Shown here: one piece after another, positions 1,416 to 64,000 of the stretch | Numbering within the stretch: position 1 is the first letter of the stretch | Layout: each line of letters starts with the position of its first letter | Sequence record: NC_055721.1 | Reading direction: 5' to 3' (one strand) | DNA: 64,000 bases | Source of the DNA: Escherichia phage EcS1 | The notes under the pieces: model-generated | Databases searched by the model: none | What the model saw: only the letters and a program-made list of their open reading frames with translations | Told to the model about the DNA's origin: nothing | Made by a program: the position numbers and the translations under genes

Positions 1416-1829
1416 TTAGTTAATAGCCTTACCATAATGTTTATACCACAAAGGCTTTTGAGTAATCTTTTCGTCAAGACGTTCCTGAGATAAACGAAGA
1501 GCACGTTGATTAGGAATATAATCATTACACCACTCGACAGGAATATCTGTTATGGGCTTAACAGTAGTATCAGTAATTTTGAAACCACGTTTTAAGCATT
1601 CATTGATGAGCTTAAACTGACGATTATGTAAGAACTTTAACTTGTTATAGAAGAATGTAACATGACCAGTCCCAAGCAAAAAGGTATCAGAGATTTTGAA
1701 ATCAGAAACCTTTTTACCAGCAGCAATATGCTTACGAACAGCACCAAACACACGAGGGAGCTCGCGATACTCCGCCATTAGATGTTGATCAGTTAATTCA
1801 GAAACAGGTGTTAAGTTAATACGTGTCAT
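1416..1829 (-). CDS. denV: endonuclease V, pyrimidine-dimer DNA glycosylase
   Basis: [34 protein letters not shown]... is near-identical in pattern to T4 DenV; start placed at the MTRINL Met, 4 codons inside the longest ORF. Confidence 0.85.
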
Positions 1830-1884
1830 GATGTCCTCCATTAGTTTAGGAAGACATCATACCACAGTACTATCTTGTTGTAAA

Positions 1885-2187
1885 CTACTTCTTAGAGTAA
1901 TCACTCATTAGTTTAACTATGTCACCAAGTTTCTTGTTGAACAGATAATCTACTTCTTTACCTGCTTTGTTAACAATCTGCCATTGGCCATCGCCTTTGT
2001 TACCGAAAGTGTAGTCGCCAACTTTAAATGAGTAGCCGCCTACTTTTTTAACAGGAGTTACTTCAAAGCCAAGTTTTTTAGCTTGGAAAGTTACACGACG
2101 CAGAGTGTCGTCCATTTCGCTTTCAGTTAGTGGTTGGGTATAAGTTTCAAGGTAAGATTCTAGTAAAGTCATTCGTATGCACCCCAA
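1885..2187 (-). CDS. hypothetical protein
   Basis: 100-aa ORF between denV and e; start uncertain (internal Met at MTLLESY). Confidence 0.4.
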
Positions 2188-2657
2188 GTGCCAGTTTTAA
2201 AAGTAGAGATAACACGCTTAGCGCGATTAGGTGTCTGATTATACCATCGGGATTTAGATAAATTAACTGCTGCTTCATCCCAACGTTTTTCTTTAAGCAT
2301 ACGCATAGAATTCGTAAATCCTGCGACGCCTGCAACACCCATTTGGAAGACCATATTAATCAGTGCAGCACGACGAACACCATCCAGAACATCATATACA
2401 GGCTTCAGAACTGAGTTGCCTAAGATGCCTCGAGTTGCCTTTTCAACATCTTTATTAAAGATGCTTTCAGCTTCGGCTTGACTGAGCTGACCGTTACAGT
2501 CGCGTCCAACAAGTTTATTAAGTTCAGTTTTAGCAATATCAAGAGATGGTTCTTTGGTCAAAAGATGACCGATACCAATTGTGTAATACCCTTCGGTATC
2601 TTTATAAATTTTAGAATCGTATCCTTCATCGATACGAAGCATTCCGAAAATATCCAT
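2169..2657 (-). CDS. e: T4-type lysozyme (endolysin)
   Basis: [35 protein letters not shown]...[15 protein letters not shown] matches T4 lysozyme along its whole length (162 aa). Confidence 0.9.
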
Positions 2658-2695: not shown

Positions 2696-3169
2696 TTACT
2701 TCCAGTTAGCTTCATGGATTTCCTTTCCGTAAAGCTTCTGCATTACATTGTAAAGAGATGGGCCCATTACGTAGTTCCACATACGAGGTTGGATAAAAGC
2801 AAATGCATCTAGTTCCGGGAAACTGACGCCGTCTTCACCAGTGTGTTGAGCTGTACAAACACAACCCTTGAAGTCCTCGACTTCGACAGCAAATGGATAG
2901 ACAAACAAATGAATATCTTTATTGGGCGCGTAGTCGTGTCGTCCTAGGTCCACTAGGGCTCCAGGATTGTACTTCTCGAAACTGGTTTCTTCTGTACATT
3001 CACGGACTGCAGCTTGAAGAACAGTTTCGCCTTCTTCAACATGTCCTTTAGGAATGTCCCAACGATGACCCTTGCCTGCTAGTCCCGAACCCGTAACGCG
3101 TCCCATGAATAAATGGTGTTCTTTTGTGAAGAACAAAATACCTGCTGATAATTCTTTTACTTTAGTCAT
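2696..3169 (-). CDS. nudE: Nudix hydrolase
   Basis: Nudix box GHVEEGETVLQAAVRECTEETS; sits next to e as in T4. Start placed at an internal Met; the longest ORF would begin at 3208. Confidence 0.7.
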   Translation of the reverse strand: MTKVKELSAGILFFTKEHHLFMGRVTGSGLAGKGHRWDIPKGHVEEGETVLQAAVRECTEETSFEKYNPGALVDLGRHDYAPNKDIHLFVYPFAVEVEDFKGCVCTAQHTGEDGVSFPELDAFAFIQPRMWNYVMGPSLYNVMQKLYGKEIHEANWK

Positions 3170-3401
3170 TAAAGTCGTCCCCGAGCCATGATAGGCTATA
3201 GATTTCACGAATCGTTTCTTCTACATCAGATTCTTCATATTCTGAATTTTCACTAACCGCTATAGTCCAATCAGCTATTGGTGAAAAATAGTCTAAATTT
3301 TCAGATAATTTAGAATGGATGGAATCTAATGATTGTGAATCTTCAAAAGAATACAGGTAAGAATCACCAGATTCAGATTTAATATAAACTGCTACAGCCA
3401 T
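3162..3401 (-). CDS. hypothetical acidic protein
   Basis: 79-aa ORF co-oriented and tightly packed with neighbours. Confidence 0.4.
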   Translation of the reverse strand: MAVAVYIKSESGDSYLYSFEDSQSLDSIHSKLSENLDYFSPIADWTIAVSENSEYEESDVEETIREIYSLSWLGDDFND

Positions 3402-7794: not shown

Positions 7795-8119
7795 TTTTGG
7801 TTCCTTTGAATATGAATTAGGTTTATTTTATATTTATCATATTCGTCCAGTGCGCACCGCTTGCTCAGATAGCCCGAAAGGGTCCCACCGAAGTAGAACC
7901 CTTTCAGAAGAATTGACAGCACTACCCACTTGCGGATAGCCTGCAAATGTTCATTTTATTATGCTCGTAGAGGCAAGTCTCACATAATAAAACATAGCGT
8001 CAGGAGGTGTCACTTTGCAGGTGATTAACAACTATGCTCATCCTCGGATAGAACATAGCAACGTAAACGTTCTCTTCTAGACTGACGTCTTATCGTAGGG
8101 TTGCAGCCCTAAACGAAAT

Positions 8120-8196
8120 TGGTGCTGAATGCAGGAATCGAACCCGCGACCTTCTCATTACAAGTGAGCTGCTCTACCTACTGAGCTAATTCAGCA
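8120..8196 (-). tRNA. tRNA-Thr (anticodon TGT)
   Basis: Cloverleaf read by hand; sequence closely resembles T4 tRNA-Thr; CCA encoded. Confidence 0.75.
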
Positions 8197-8199
8197 ATT

Positions 8200-8284
8200 T
8201 GGTGCATCGAGAGGGATTCGAACCCTCAATCCTCGCGGCGTGGCATTTTAAGTGCCATGTGTATACCAGTTCCACCATCGATGC
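8200..8284 (-). tRNA. tRNA-Leu (anticodon TAA)
   Basis: 85-nt class II tRNA with long variable arm; anticodon loop CTTAAAA; CCA encoded. Confidence 0.7.
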
Positions 8285-8288
8285 GAAT

Positions 8289-8363
8289 TGGTCGAGACAG
8301 TAGGGATCGAACCTACGACCTAGGACTTAGAAGGTCCTTGCTCTTCCGTCTGAGCTATGCCCC
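8289..8363 (-). tRNA. tRNA-Arg (anticodon TCT)
   Basis: Anticodon arm GGAC-CTTCTAA-GTCC, T-loop TTCGATC, CCA encoded. Confidence 0.7.
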
Positions 8364-8525
8364 GTCTTTGTATAAACGTTCTAAGTAAACATGCTCCATC
8401 GGTTTAACGATTTCGCCTTGTTTCAATAATTGTGTTTGAATAGGATTCAAATTATAAAATTTGATCACATCTCTGAGATCTTGTTCGCTATAATTAAAAG
8501 TTCCTACTTCTACTCCGATTTGCAT
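8355..8525 (-). CDS. hypothetical small protein (56 aa)
   Basis: Small ORF between tRNA genes, not in the supplied track (below its length cut-off); stop overlaps the tRNA-Arg 5' end. Confidence 0.25.
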   Translation of the reverse strand: MQIGVEVGTFNYSEQDLRDVIKFYNLNPIQTQLLKQGEIVKPMEHVYLERLYKDGA

Positions 8526-8537
8526 AAGTATCCTTTT

Positions 8538-8624
8538 TGGAGCTAGGAGTGAGATTCGAACTCACGAAAGCATAACGCTACTGGATTTGCAATCCAGCGC
8601 CTTTGACCACTCGGCAATCCTAGC
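8538..8624 (-). tRNA. class II-type tRNA with anticodon GCA (Cys) and U73 discriminator
   Basis: 87 nt; acceptor GCTAGGA/TCCTAGC, Ser/Tyr-like D-arm GCCGAGTGGTCAAAGGC, anticodon stem CTGGA/TCCAG with loop TTGCAAA, 15-nt variable arm, T-loop TTCGAAT. Confidence 0.5.
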
Positions 8625-8626
8625 AA

Positions 8627-8754
8627 ATGTTCAGGTGGGAGTCGAACCCACACGATTGAAGCCTCTCATCGGGTTACCTCTTACTCAGCTGGGTGCTTAA
8701 ACCAGCGTTTCAAACAGAGTCCGCCAACATGTCTACCGATTCCATCACTGAACA
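8627..8754 (-). ncRNA. tRNA-like stable RNA candidate (about 128 nt)
   Basis: Perfect 7-bp acceptor-like pairing (TGTTCAG/CTGAACA) next to a canonical T-arm (GTGGG-TTCGACT-CCCAC) and a Leu-like D region (GGAATCGGTAGAC), but too long for a tRNA and without a clean anticodon arm. Confidence 0.35.
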
Positions 8755-8758
8755 ATTT

Positions 8759-8983
8759 TTACATATCTACTTGACAAAACCAGTTCATTTCAAAATATTC
8801 ATCAAAATGTAATGCAGGTTCTACTTGACAATTTTCTTCTAATAAGACCAAATTTCTTCTAACAATAGGGTCTAATGACGTGATGGTCAAAGCACTATCA
8901 TGATAGTAAATCAGAACACGAAGCGAATCTGTATCAACTAAATACCGAACATTCATATCAGGATGTTTGTAGAGGTTAATCAT
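8759..8983 (-). CDS. hypothetical protein
   Basis: 74-aa ORF upstream of the tRNA block. Confidence 0.4.
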   Translation of the reverse strand: MINLYKHPDMNVRYLVDTDSLRVLIYYHDSALTITSLDPIVRRNLVLLEENCQVEPALHFDEYFEMNWFCQVDM

Positions 8984-8989
8984 AACATT

Positions 8990-9436
8990 TTATCCTTGAA
9001 GCATTTCACGAACACGATAAAGATTAGAACAGAATTCTTGTTCAGTTAGAACAGTTTCATTCTTTTTATTCTTACCCATGCTATGAGTTAATGTTGAGTT
9101 ACGCGTAGCTAGGAGTGCTCTCTTGAATCCTTCATTCAAAGCCAGAGAATCATATGCTCGCTGAATTAAAGACGTATAGGCTATACTTTGACGTAAAATA
9201 GGGACACCTTTCCAGTACAACGTTTGGGTGCGCCACCAGTTCTTTTTCTTACCTTTGAACTTAGCTTTCTTACCAACTAATGTACAGACATGCTCTTGCA
9301 TTTCTACTGAAGAAAACTTCAATGATTGCAAGAAACCTTCCATTGATGCACACTGTACTCCATCAATTTCGAAAGCATGAGGAGCAAAGTTACTTAATGC
9401 ACAACTTGGGTACATTGAACCTGAACCAATATCCAT
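8990..9436 (-). CDS. NADAR-domain protein (YbiA/DUF1768-like)
   Basis: LSNFAPHAFEIDGVQCASMEGFLQSLKF and FKRALLATRNSTLTHS match conserved NADAR blocks (compare E. coli YbiA FSNFAAWPIKVDGKTWPTSEHYFQAQKF and LRALLLATAPAKLVEHT). Confidence 0.65.
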   Translation of the reverse strand: MDIGSGSMYPSCALSNFAPHAFEIDGVQCASMEGFLQSLKFSSVEMQEHVCTLVGKKAKFKGKKKNWWRTQTLYWKGVPILRQSIAYTSLIQRAYDSLALNEGFKRALLATRNSTLTHSMGKNKKNETVLTEQEFCSNLYRVREMLQG

Positions 9437-9527
9437 TATCCATTATTCCTTTGATGATAATAACAGCGTTTACATCGATACCAACCGAAATAATCTTTGT
9501 AGATTATTCTATTGCAGTTGGGACATT

Positions 9528-9782
9528 TCATGCTGGTTCTACCTCAGTCATTGTTGTCCGTTTCAGAACCACACAACCTTCTATTTCAGGGTCTTTCTTA
9601 ACCAGAACTCGTCCAGTAGGCGAAATAAGGCCAGTAATATGATTCAGAGCTTTAGCAGCATCATTGAAGCCATCAGCTTGCATAATCGTTCCGAATGAGA
9701 ACCCTTGATAGTGATTACTAAACTCGTAATAAGCGTATTCTTCACGAATAGGGCAATAAATCACATAATCAACATTCAGCAT
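9528..9782 (-). CDS. hypothetical protein
   Basis: 84-aa ORF. Confidence 0.4.
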   Translation of the reverse strand: MLNVDYVIYCPIREEYAYYEFSNHYQGFSFGTIMQADGFNDAAKALNHITGLISPTGRVLVKKDPEIEGCVVLKRTTMTEVEPA

Positions 9783-10114
9783 AAGTCACCTACACATTGG
9801 AGAGCACGATGGTGTGACCATATTTCTAAAGTCTTTTCGTTGGCTTTATTAATTCGACGAAGGTCATTTAAATTACCTTTAACATATAACCCAAGTTCAC
9901 TTAACAAATGATCGATAGTGAAATAAGAAATATCTCGCAGTGGAGCATAACGGAACTTAATGAAGTGCCATTCATCAAACTCGTTTTTGGTAAACGCATA
10001 ATCAGCATGCATCATGAGTTCGCGAATCGTTTCACGCATCAAAAAGACATTACCGTGATAAGAATCATTTATAGCAACAATATGTGGACCTACACCTAGA
10101 TAGATACGAGACAT
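9776..10114 (-). CDS. hypothetical protein
   Basis: 112-aa ORF preceded by RBS GAGGAAA. Confidence 0.45.
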   Translation of the reverse strand: MSRIYLGVGPHIVAINDSYHGNVFLMRETIRELMMHADYAFTKNEFDEWHFIKFRYAPLRDISYFTIDHLLSELGLYVKGNLNDLRRINKANEKTLEIWSHHRALQCVGDLC

Positions 10115-10133
10115 AATATTTTCCTCAGTCAGT

Positions 10134-10304
10134 TTATTCTACATCATATTCAACTACAAGCACTTCTTCATAATCTTCAGGATTAAGAGTTTTAATGTAG
10201 TCTTCTGCTTTTTCTTTACTCGATAGAATCTTTAATGGCTTTGAATATTCATCATATCCATATTCACAGTTAAACTCTGACATAACAACTGCGTATACTA
10301 TCAT
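10134..10304 (-). CDS. hypothetical small acidic protein (56 aa)
   Basis: ORF below the track cut-off; the same RBS (GAGGAAAATATT-ATG) as the downstream gene. Confidence 0.35.
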   Translation of the reverse strand: MIVYAVVMSEFNCEYGYDEYSKPLKILSSKEKAEDYIKTLNPEDYEEVLVVEYDVE

Positions 10305-10324
10305 AATATTTTCCTCATTTGAAT

Positions 10325-10401
10325 TGGTGGCCCTTGTCGGAGTCTAACCGACCTTACACCAGTTATGAGCTGGGCACTTTCACACGAAAGTATAAAGGGC
10401 C
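10325..10401 (-). tRNA. tRNA-Met-like (anticodon CAT), non-canonical D and T loops
   Basis: 77 nt with perfect acceptor stem and CCA, anticodon loop CTCATAA; D-loop lacks GG and T-loop is TTAGACT. Confidence 0.4.
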
Positions 10402-10458
10402 ATTATTAAAATATTTTTACTTTAATAATGGCCCTCTCCGAAGAGAGGACAGAGGGTA

Positions 10459-10743
10459 TTACTTACACATGAACTTAGCAACTTCATCGAAGCTGTTCAA
10501 GATGTAATAAGACTTAGGCGCACTGTATTCAGTAGGTTTAATAGTAATACGTACACGACCATGCAAGTCTTCAACTAATCCAACAACAGCACTTGAACGA
10601 ACAACAGCACGAGCAGTTGTAGGAATCTGACCGGTAGTCAGAGCTTGAAGTTCGGTGTCAATAAGGATTACAATACGTTCAGACATTTTAATTTCCATTT
10701 GTTGTTTCGATGTAGTAATAATAACATGATTATTTTGAAGCAT
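10459..10743 (-). CDS. hypothetical protein
   Basis: 94-aa ORF; start uncertain (internal Met candidates). Confidence 0.4.
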   Translation of the reverse strand: MLQNNHVIITTSKQQMEIKMSERIVILIDTELQALTTGQIPTTARAVVRSSAVVGLVEDLHGRVRITIKPTEYSAPKSYYILNSFDEVAKFMCK

Positions 10744-10801
10744 AACCGTTCAGAGACTAAAAAGCCCAGTACAAGATTTCTCTTGCCCGGGCGTCATTAT
10801 T

Positions 10802-10876
10802 TGGAGCAGCATATCGGACTCGAACCGATGTCGACTGGGTGGAAGCCAGTAATATTAACCACTATACGAATGCTGC
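10802..10876 (-). tRNA. tRNA-Gly (anticodon TCC)
   Basis: Acceptor GCAGCAT/ATGCTGC, anticodon arm ACTGG-CTTCCAC-CCAGT, T-loop TTCGAGT, CCA encoded. Confidence 0.7.
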
Positions 10877-10877
10877 A

Positions 10878-10951
10878 TGGCAGGCCCTGTAGGAATCGAA
10901 CCCACGTCGCTGAGGTTGGAGCTCAGAATGATACCACTATACCAAGGACCC
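10878..10951 (-). tRNA. tRNA-Trp (anticodon CCA)
   Basis: Anticodon arm CTGAG-CTCCAAC-CTCAG, T-loop TTCGATT, CCA encoded. Confidence 0.65.
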
Positions 10952-11102
10952 GTTGATTGTACGGAACGCCTGGATTCGAACCAGGTTACAAAGCAGTTGA
11001 CGCTCCTTTGTATTTTGTAAGGCCATCATCTCGACCATATCCGAACGTTTCGTCAAAAACGCTACTCGGCTTATGGCAAAGACAAATCCTCGAACCGATA
11101 AT

Positions 11103-12475: not shown

Positions 12476-12552
12476 TGGTGGGACATCATGGACTCGAACC
12501 ATGGACACCCGGATTAAAAGTCCGGTGCTCTAACCAACTGAGCTAATATCCC
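12476..12552 (-). tRNA. tRNA-Lys (anticodon TTT)
   Basis: Anticodon arm CCGGA-CTTTTAA-TCCGG, T-loop TTCGAGT, CCA encoded. Confidence 0.7.
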
Positions 12553-13060
12553 ATAGATATTTATCTATAAATCTCTTAGCTTGAGTATGACTTATATTTA
12601 AACTTTTACTAAACTTGGTTAATGCACCTCGTTTAGTAAAATCTATTAAATTATAAGCTTCAATTCTAGAAGCAATTTCTTCTTCAGACAAAACCAAAGC
12701 ATGGTTTTCTGAAATCTTTTTACGAGATTCTGTTGTATGTGACATACCAGTAAAACCAAGAGTAGGTTTTAGTCTACCATTAGCTTTAGCGTCTTGTGCA
12801 TTTTGTTTATTTGTCGCACAATAAATGTTTTCTAATGAATAAGGACCTATATCGCCTTTACGACACATGCAATAATCCAAACTTGCTTTACCACGTAAAT
12901 GATATTTACCTGTTGATTTCCACCAAGTAAACCACTCATCAAAAGTTAGATTAAATTCAATACCACGAGCTTTGGCATGAACTTTTTGCATACGGTACTT
13001 TTCATAATCTTCCATACAACTCTCACAAATTGGCAGTGCCGACGGGATTCGAACCCGCAT
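12530..13060 (-). CDS. putative HNH-type homing endonuclease with NUMOD-like and HTH-like C-terminal motifs
   Basis: CxxC plus Cys/His-rich N-terminal region (CESC...DYCMCRKGDIGPYSLENIYCATNKQN), NUMOD3-like GFTGMSHTTESRKKISENH, C-terminal HTH-like segment; both ORF ends overlap tRNA genes, so the true start is probably the internal Met at about 13015. Confidence 0.45.
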   Translation of the reverse strand: MRVRIPSALPICESCMEDYEKYRMQKVHAKARGIEFNLTFDEWFTWWKSTGKYHLRGKASLDYCMCRKGDIGPYSLENIYCATNKQNAQDAKANGRLKPTLGFTGMSHTTESRKKISENHALVLSEEEIASRIEAYNLIDFTKRGALTKFSKSLNISHTQAKRFIDKYLWDISSVG

Positions 13061-14021: not shown

Positions 14022-14933
<912 letters not shown>

Positions 14934-62786: not shown

Positions 62787-64000
62787 CTACCCTTGAATAA
62801 AACGTTCTGGGATTTCTTGGATGTCTATTAAAGAAGCTAAAAGAGCTAGTCCTTCTTTGTTAGGATTAGGCTTTGAAGCCTTCACAAATGAGGTAAAGTT
62901 CAATGGTTCAGAAGTGTCCATAGCAACAAGTTCACCATTCTCAAACAATGCATCACCATCATACACTATAGTAGATTCTTCAATTTGTTCTGAAGTCATG
63001 ATTTCAGCTTGAATGAACTTTTGGTTACTATATTGAATACCGTCATTATAAGAAGCATCAGTTATAGAATTAATGGATACCATTGTTCCACGAGGTAAAA
63101 TGATTTCCATTTCAGAAGGCATATTACTCAAATCACCAGGGAAGATGACGTTAATTTTATGACCACCATCAATAGCCCAACCAACTGTAACTCTGATATC
63201 ATTTTCAAATTGGCCTGGCATATCTTTTGCTTCTTCGGAACCTGCATCAATGTTAAGTTCACTACGAACTTCTTCAGGAGCTAAACCAATAGCCGAATTT
63301 CCTTTCCAACCACCAAAGATGATAGGAGCTAATGAAGTAGAAACATAATTACGGAAATAGAATACACGGTTTTTAATCAATGATTCCCAAATAGGCTTAC
63401 GTATAGTTTGAGAACGCCATAACGTAATATTTTCTGGGATGCGGTCACCACGTTCAAAAGCAGCATCAATTCCATCAATAGCTTCTAAGACTTCATAGCG
63501 ATTCATTATATTGCTACTTTGCTCAGACCAACGGCCAAGCAAATAATCATTAATATCATGATAACCAGAACCAACATATTCTCTGATACCACGTTGCTCT
63601 TTTACTGGATATTGTAAAGGAGTACGAGAGCCAGCTATACCATTAATATTATCTGATACGTTTTTGGCATAGTTTTGAAGTGATTCTTTGATGAACTTAG
63701 TTCTTAACATAGTCCATTCAGCTTGAGCACGTTCTTTTGACATGCCATAATTATCATCCAATTGTTTATCTATAAAATCTTCTTTAAAATCTTCAGTCAT
63801 ATCCATGCATAATTTAGCATATTCTTGCATACTTTTAACAGAAGTTAAAGGAGCTTGACCTATATTTTTAATTAAAACTTCAGTCATTCGATCTGACATT
63901 CTAGCAATAGTATCTTCATCAATAAATCTTAAATTTTTTAATCTATAACCAATACCGTTGACGGCTCTTTCTGCTGATCTTGTTCTAGCAGCCTTAGAAG
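62787..64000 (-). CDS. alt: ADP-ribosyltransferase Alt, 5'-truncated by the window edge
   Basis: The frame is open from 62787 to the window end. Carries ART hallmarks: R-region YVGSGYHDINDYLLGR, STS motif (NYVSTSL) and E-x-E (SEMEIILPRG). Confidence 0.75.
   Translation of the reverse strand, partial: SKAARTRSAERAVNGIGYRLKNLRFIDEDTIARMSDRMTEVLIKNIGQAPLTSVKSMQEYAKLCMDMTEDFKEDFIDKQLDDNYGMSKERAQAEWTMLRTKFIKESLQNYAKNVSDNINGIAGSRTPLQYPVKEQRGIREYVGSGYHDINDYLLGRWSEQSSNIMNRYEVLEAIDGIDAAFERGDRIPENITLWRSQTIRKPIWESLIKNRVFYFRNYVSTSLAPIIFGGWKGNSAIGLAPEEVRSELNIDAGSEEAKDMPGQFENDIRVTVGWAIDGGHKINVIFPGDLSNMPSEMEIILPRGTMVSINSITDASYNDGIQYSNQKFIQAEIMTSEQIEESTIVYDGDALFENGELVAMDTSEPLNFTSFVKASKPNPNKEGLALLASLIDIQEIPERFIQG

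Follow-up and report, generated by a model that had tools for sequence, protein, structure and literature searches.

Escherichia phage EcS1 (genus Kagamiyamavirus, Tevenvirinae) very probably carries an AdfN-type phage NADAR, a guanine-ADP-ribose DNA glycohydrolase that counters the DarTG1 defence system. We analysed the gene within a window of EcS1 DNA, by which we mean the whole stretch of 64,000 nucleotides. Its product is a stand-alone member of the gp30.3 branch of NADARs with the NADAR fold, the conserved residues of its family and an intact C terminus. By homology to T4 AdfN, with which it shares 41% identity, it would also have the enzymatic activity, the guanine specificity and the anti-DarTG1 role of that enzyme.

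The adfN-like open reading frame begins with ATG and comprises 148 codons plus a stop, and the encoded protein is 100% identical to KNT65_gp293, a 'hypothetical protein' of EcS1. The start is secure, because an in-frame stop lies two codons 5' of the ATG and MDIGSG is the N terminus of every ortholog aligned with the EcS1 product. Both conserved blocks on which the first-pass annotation had based its description of a 148-residue product are present in the minus-strand frame, namely LSNFAPHAFEIDGVQCASMEGFLQSLKF (residues 14–41) and FKRALLATRNSTLTHS (residues 104–119). The features of the gene used below are the following.

8990..9436, minus strand: adfN-like gene, a phage NADAR of the T4 30.3 family (ORF listing, PF08010, AF2 model)
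9386..9397, minus strand: LSNF codons (L14-S15-N16-F17), the N-terminal NADAR motif, FSNF in YbiA (alignment, hhalign)
9338..9340, minus strand: E33 codon, catalytic glutamate, equivalent to T4 AdfN E36 and YbiA E48 (pairwise alignment, hhalign)
9317..9319, minus strand: K40 codon, phosphate-coordinating lysine, equivalent to T4 AdfN K43 and YbiA K55 (alignments, hhalign)
9083..9085, minus strand: H118 codon, the histidine that defines phage NADARs (family alignment, AF2 model)
8996..9043, minus strand: C-terminal α-helix, residues 132–147, intact (AF2 model, T4 alignment)

The product matches the Pfam model PF08010 (Phage_30_3, so called after T4 gene 30.3) far beyond chance, with E=1.5e-57 and 193.7 bits against a cutoff of 36 bits, over profile positions 2–138 of 138. 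It also matches phrog_652, listed in PHROGs as of 'unknown function' (E=1.2e-52), and its homologs are found at 1,509 places in 1,508 phage records, nearly always as a single copy. A weak PADLOC match to the candidate-system protein PDC-M42C (E=9e-5) was uninformative. The NADAR model proper, PF08719, gave no match at E<=1. This search had been put forward as the one that could refute the NADAR assignment, and taken at face value its negative outcome would wrongly reject the idea: the match is missing because Pfam splits the gp30.3 branch into a model of its own, PF08010, and not because homology is absent. The original assignment thus stands for the superfamily, on the strength of profile and fold comparisons, and fails for the PF08719 match at that threshold.

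Support for the superfamily comes from comparisons more sensitive to distance. A single-sequence search of PDB sequences with the EcS1 product found nothing; when the family profile was used, Escherichia coli YbiA was the best PDB sequence match, at a marginal E=0.0097. We therefore compared alignments directly: hhalign joined 60 diverse relatives of the EcS1 protein, drawn from an exhaustive search that yielded 1,115 representative clusters, with 35 YbiA/NADAR sequences at 97.5% probability (E=8e-12, 142 columns), pairing LSNF with F29-S30-N31-F32 of YbiA, E33 with E48 and K40 with K55. In the opposite direction, an HMM of YbiA homologs picked out the adfN-like frame alone among the 1,226 six-frame ORFs of the window (E=1.5e-4). 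Bridging sequences also exist, as PF08719 is matched by 5 of 40 multidomain relatives and several single-domain YbiA-like proteins carry PF08010 and PF08719 matches together. Because the profile–profile, HMM and bridging-sequence evidence agree, we place the gp30.3 branch in the NADAR superfamily; the relationship is real but remote. The fold comparison reveals it too, as does a weak match to the YbiA-type model TIGR02464 (E=1.4e-3). In practice, screens that use PF08719 alone miss the entire gp30.3 branch.

Relatives from outside the window show this domain in other company. In proteins of a second alignment (P0125–P0265), a gp30.3-type NADAR is fused to a Tpt1/KptA RNA 2'-phosphotransferase, and further partners are ASCH, histidine phosphatase, GDSL lipase, LRR and D-Ala-D-Ala-ligase domains; one protein of 480 residues (P0126) contains several NADAR repeats. 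Judged from these domain arrangements, the fusions suggest wider NAD/ADP-ribose and RNA-linked roles outside phages. The gp30.3 type is also found in phages that are not T4-like, such as Brevundimonas phage Gurke and Tenacibaculum phage pT24.

An AF2 model of the EcS1 protein (pLDDT 98, pTM 0.92) adopts the YbiA/NADAR fold, restricted to the core domain. Across the 60-sequence family alignment E33, K40, H118 and the LSNF motif are conserved in at least 90% of sequences, and E33, K40, H118, S15, N16 and F17 are invariant among phage orthologs of six genera, with T4 included for H118. The active-site residues that the first-pass annotation had suggested checking in an alignment are thus all in place. 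E33 and K40 align pairwise with E36 and K43 of T4 AdfN, of which the E36A mutant loses activity and the K43A mutant is impaired (PMC11825919); in the NADAR of E. coli C7, K95 is essential (PMC11543638). The subfamilies differ in the third active-site residue, which is Glu in the YbiA type, Asp in NADARs associated with DarT1 and His in those of phages (PMC11543638). H118 is mapped to this last-strand position at the level of sequence: hhalign offsets it by one column from YbiA E125, and in the model it adjoins residue 117, an isolated β-bridge.

The C terminus matters in this family, as a frameshift in the RB69 adfN allele costs the protein its last 15 residues, which form a terminal helix, and renders it inactive (PMC11825919). 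In EcS1 this helix is present (residues 132–147 of the model), and the alignment with T4 AdfN extends to the C terminus. The gene is also under strong purifying selection, with dN/dS at 0.045 in the comparison with Erwinia phage Virsaitis27 and at 0.10 in that with Edwardsiella phage PEi20. Every sequence and structure feature of the AdfN family that we examined is kept.

The characterized reference is T4 gp30.3, which aligns with the EcS1 protein end to end (41% identity, E=3e-33). Like it, T4 AdfN is a PF08010 protein of similar length (152 versus 148 residues) and a stand-alone core NADAR in a Tevenvirinae phage, and both have the catalytic Glu and Lys as well as the subfamily His and the C-terminal helix. 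Within the family, the EcS1 protein belongs to a sub-clade that is 75–97% identical to copies from Winklervirus, Kanagawavirus, Biquartavirus and Slopekvirus and about 40% identical to those from Tequatrovirus.

NADARs hydrolyse the ADP-ribose that DarT1 attaches to guanine N2 (Schuller et al. 2023, PMC11543638), and the phage members have been termed 'gp30.3 proteins' in a 2024 Toxins paper, in which T4 gp30.3 removed G-ADPr and not T-ADPr in vitro (PMC11125620). Johannesman et al. 2025 renamed T4 30.3 adfN, for anti-DarT factor NADAR, and described the family as spread across T4-like phages; T4 AdfN strips ADP-ribose from DarT1-modified DNA in vitro, and T4 adfN lets RB69 plaque again on DarTG1 (PMC11825919). 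Independent transposon evidence points the same way, as T4 30.3 insertions drop out on DarTG1 hosts (HIDEN-SEQ preprint). Neither T4 AdfN nor two other phage NADARs, which counter the guanine-directed DarTG1, rescue phages from the thymine-directed DarTG2 (PMC11825919), and according to a 2026 paper the T4 NADAR leaves C-ADPr and T-ADPr uncleaved (PMC12945103). Full function of T4 AdfN is seen only during T-even infection, and the protein depends on some further T-even factor (PMC11825919); in uninfected cells, neither T4 AdfN nor YbiA rescues DarT1 toxicity (PMC11125620, PMC11825919).

Transferred to EcS1, this chemistry gives a simple scheme. In an infected DarTG1 host, DarT1 would attach ADP-ribose to guanine N2 of the phage DNA and so block phage replication; the AdfN-like enzyme would hydrolyse the guanine–ADP-ribose bond using E33, K40 and H118, and the restored, unmodified DNA would allow the phage to replicate. 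The protein would in effect be an orphan, phage-borne copy of the DarG1 antitoxin activity that has no toxin partner. The counter-defence role first proposed from the sequence, that of a guanine ADP-ribose eraser, agrees with the T4 AdfN experiments, and the EcS1 protein keeps the features linked to them. For DarTG2 hosts and ADP-ribosylated thymine we would expect no effect, because T4 AdfN and the two other phage NADARs gave no DarTG2 rescue.

Comparison with the other known systems sharpens this assignment. DarG1 (E. coli C7; Geobacter/Trichlorobacter lovleyi, PDB 8bat) has a catalytic Asp where the EcS1 protein has His, and an N-terminal extension in a 219-residue chain, whereas the EcS1 protein is a 148-residue core without it. 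No DarT1 toxin gene lies beside the adfN-like gene, and neither an ART nor any other Pfam domain is found in the neighbouring ORFs. AdfN-Bas32 and AdfN-Bas60, from Markadamsvirinae and Vequintavirinae, are likewise orphan phage NADARs with the same anti-DarTG1 chemistry (PMC11825919). They belong, however, to other branches of the superfamily (archaeal-like and bacterial non-YbiA-like), whereas the EcS1 protein is clearly of the gp30.3 type; they are reached from T4 AdfN only by DELTA-BLAST and are active without T-even infection (PMC11825919).

The genomic setting of the EcS1 gene differs from that of T4, in which adfN lies between 30.2 and 30.4 beside DNA ligase. The window contains 17 tRNA genes, all on the minus strand between 8120 and 13284 and broken up by small ORFs of unknown function, and the adfN-like gene, third in a tightly packed string of small ORFs, lies inside this block, with 13 tRNA genes on its 5' side and 4 on its 3' side, rather than upstream of it as had been annotated at first. 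The window is about 80% identical in nucleotide sequence to Winklervirus phages over structural genes, and the tRNA-block arrangement of adfN recurs in Winklervirus, Kanagawavirus and Biquartavirus. The ortholog in KP15 (Slopekvirus), 75% identical, sits at the 30.3-30.2-ligase locus; a single AdfN sub-clade (75–97% identity) is thus found at two Straboviridae loci, the ligase locus and the tRNA block. Neither the T4 30.1–31.2 neighbours, 30.2 and 30.4 included, nor a second NADAR copy occur in the 64-kb window, and across five related loci we found no co-conserved neighbour that could be a conserved partner gene or a candidate for the T-even factor. Since adfN is the only gene common to the related loci and no T4 30.x neighbour accompanies it, it behaves as a stand-alone, relocatable module. 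Scans of positions 8000–11000 returned 8 promoter-like sites, where 8.2 were expected, and no terminator; because they offer no usable transcription signal, co-transcription of adfN with the tRNAs is something we infer rather than observe.

Immediately upstream of adfN lies one further small frame.

9436..9531, minus strand: mini-ORF of 31 residues with a CxxC-x14-CxxC pattern, MKCPNCNRIIYKDYFGWYRCKRCYYHQRNNG (ORF listing)

Its TAA overlaps the adfN ATG (TAATG), an arrangement that suggests translational coupling. A tblastn search for the mini-ORF beside adfN in five related phages gave no match; because it is not conserved there, it is probably no functional partner, and it may be lineage-specific or spurious.

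Several other genes in this part of the window deserve mention. The tRNA-Cys gene next to adfN (8538..8624) has no counterpart in the Virsaitis27 locus. Between tRNA-Lys and tRNA-Asp, and overlapping the predicted ends of both, a 176-residue ORF (12530..13060, minus strand) matches phrog_16521, of unknown function (E=9e-57), and at its N terminus weakly resembles HNH endonucleases (E=1.4e-5); it possibly encodes a homing endonuclease, perhaps relevant to gene shuffling in the tRNA block. A homolog of the anti-CBASS nuclease Acb1 (T4 57B; PF23474, E=3.5e-58), labelled 'RNA ligase' in PHROGs, is encoded at 14231..14686 (minus strand), about 5 kb from adfN across the tRNA block, such that two anti-defence genes flank the tRNA cluster. 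Among the ORFs scanned near the start of the window, which are denV-like, lysozyme and Nudix genes plus unknowns, no macrodomain (AdfM/tk.4-like) gene was found. The Nudix hydrolase gene (2696..3208, minus strand; phrog_1185, E=1.6e-65; PF00293) adjoins those for lysozyme (e) and a denV-like pyrimidine-dimer glycosylase (ORFs at 2169..2657 and 1416..1841). T4 NudE (e.1) hydrolyses ADP-ribose, and by analogy the Nudix product could break down the ADP-ribose that AdfN sets free.

Other substrates and modes of action have to be weighed against the AdfN role. One is a housekeeping role like that of YbiA, in which the protein, as an N-glycosidase, would rid the infected cell of reactive intermediates of the riboflavin pathway or of other nucleotide metabolites. 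YbiA being the best PDB match (E=0.0097) speaks for it, as does a weak match to TIGR02464, the NCBIfam model of YbiA-type, riboflavin-intermediate N-glycosidases (E=1.4e-3), but at 18.9 bits the latter falls far under the 73.7-bit cutoff. The residues of E-H-T and YWGDGG, invariant in 35 YbiA homologs, are replaced by T-H-S-M-G-K-N in the EcS1 protein, such that the last-strand Glu and the loop of YbiA (PDB 2b3w; PF08719/TIGR02464) are both absent; identity to YbiA is 18–19% in structural alignments and 26% over aligned columns in MAFFT, and by the published subfamily definition gp30.3 proteins fall outside the YbiA family (PMC11543638, PMC11125620). We consider this function very improbable. 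Still less credible is a non-enzymatic mode in which the protein mimics an antitoxin and blocks DarT1 by binding it directly, as AdfA(R164H) is described to do and, according to the AdfN paper, another phage NADAR, which is reported to need no catalysis (PMC11825919). Against it, the catalytic residues of the EcS1 protein are conserved under strong purifying selection; T4 AdfN, moreover, is impaired by catalytic mutations and does not interact with DarT1 in a two-hybrid assay (PMC11825919).

The far end of the window raises a different possibility. The Alt-like ADP-ribosyltransferase already recognized in the first-pass annotation is confirmed at 62787..64000 (minus strand), where matches to PF03496 (E=1e-25) and to positions 318–674 of 674 of phrog_802 (E=3e-112) mark its C-terminal catalytic part; the gene continues past the window end. 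Alt is a protein-arginine ADP-ribosyltransferase. Its presence had led to the suggestion that the phage encodes both a writer and a putative eraser, and the EcS1 NADAR might accordingly tune or reverse the phage's own ADP-ribosylation by Alt, ModA or ModB; T4 has both genes as well, alt and 30.3 lying within about 5 kb of each other. A functional link between the two finds no support, however. Alt targets proteins according to the T4 record annotation, whereas guanine-ADPr is the substrate of the T4 NADAR, with T-ADPr and C-ADPr left intact (PMC11825919, PMC11125620, PMC12945103). In the window the two genes are 53 kb apart, and gp30.3-type NADARs also occur in the non-T4-like Gurke and pT24. 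Self-erasure is accordingly a highly unlikely function.

The sole rival with any positive hint is that the main substrate is RNA, with the enzyme, expressed together with the tRNAs, removing guanine-linked ADP-ribose from tRNA or other RNA hit by an RNA-targeting ART, be it a defence or a toxin. The gene lies within the block of 17 same-strand tRNA genes with no terminator-like site in 8000–11000, the same placement is seen in Winklervirus, Kanagawavirus and Biquartavirus, one family relative is fused to a Tpt1/KptA domain, and all NADAR families, that of phage T4 included, are reported to remove G-ADPr from RNA in vitro (PMC12945103). Yet the tRNA-block site is not conserved, given that both the 75%-identical KP15 ortholog and the T4 gene occupy the 30.3-30.2-ligase locus; the T4 knockout phenotype is explained by the DNA-targeting DarT1 (PMC11825919, HIDEN-SEQ preprint); and the cited NADAR literature describes no enterobacterial ART defence directed at guanine in RNA. 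On balance we regard RNA as a distinctly unlikely main substrate. A related proposal, also unlikely though not negligible, is that the tRNA-block sub-clade (EcS1, Winklervirus, Kanagawavirus and Biquartavirus) differs functionally from T4 AdfN, either by acting on RNA or tRNA as well as DNA or by working free of the T-even factor. In the former case, the gene could be co-transcribed with the phage tRNAs and its product could act on G-ADPr in RNA or tRNA in addition to DNA. If the sub-clades do differ, comparing the two might reveal the basis of the T-even context dependence of T4 AdfN.

The assignment of EcS1 AdfN as a guanine-directed anti-DarTG1 enzyme has some counterweights of its own. Identity to the characterized enzyme is only 41% and the direct PF08719 test was negative, which, at the level of sequence, would count against it. 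To judge from T4 AdfN, activity in vitro need not guarantee protection in vivo. Furthermore, the window lacks the T4 neighbours 30.2 and 30.4, and the gene has no co-conserved neighbour.

The mechanism is known from papers of 2023 to 2025 on the T4 ortholog, and our reading of the EcS1 gene is not new in that respect; the new points are minor, an upgrade of the EcS1 annotation and a note on gene relocation, and imply no new biology. EcS1 and most of the roughly 1,500 phage records with this gene list its product as a 'hypothetical protein', which can be renamed an AdfN-type anti-DarTG1 ADP-ribosylglycohydrolase. Such an annotation helps to predict the host range of T4-like therapeutic phages on DarTG1-positive strains. 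That adfN has moved between ligase locus and tRNA block is a further small data point for the mobility of anti-defence genes among the hyperplastic regions of Straboviridae genomes.
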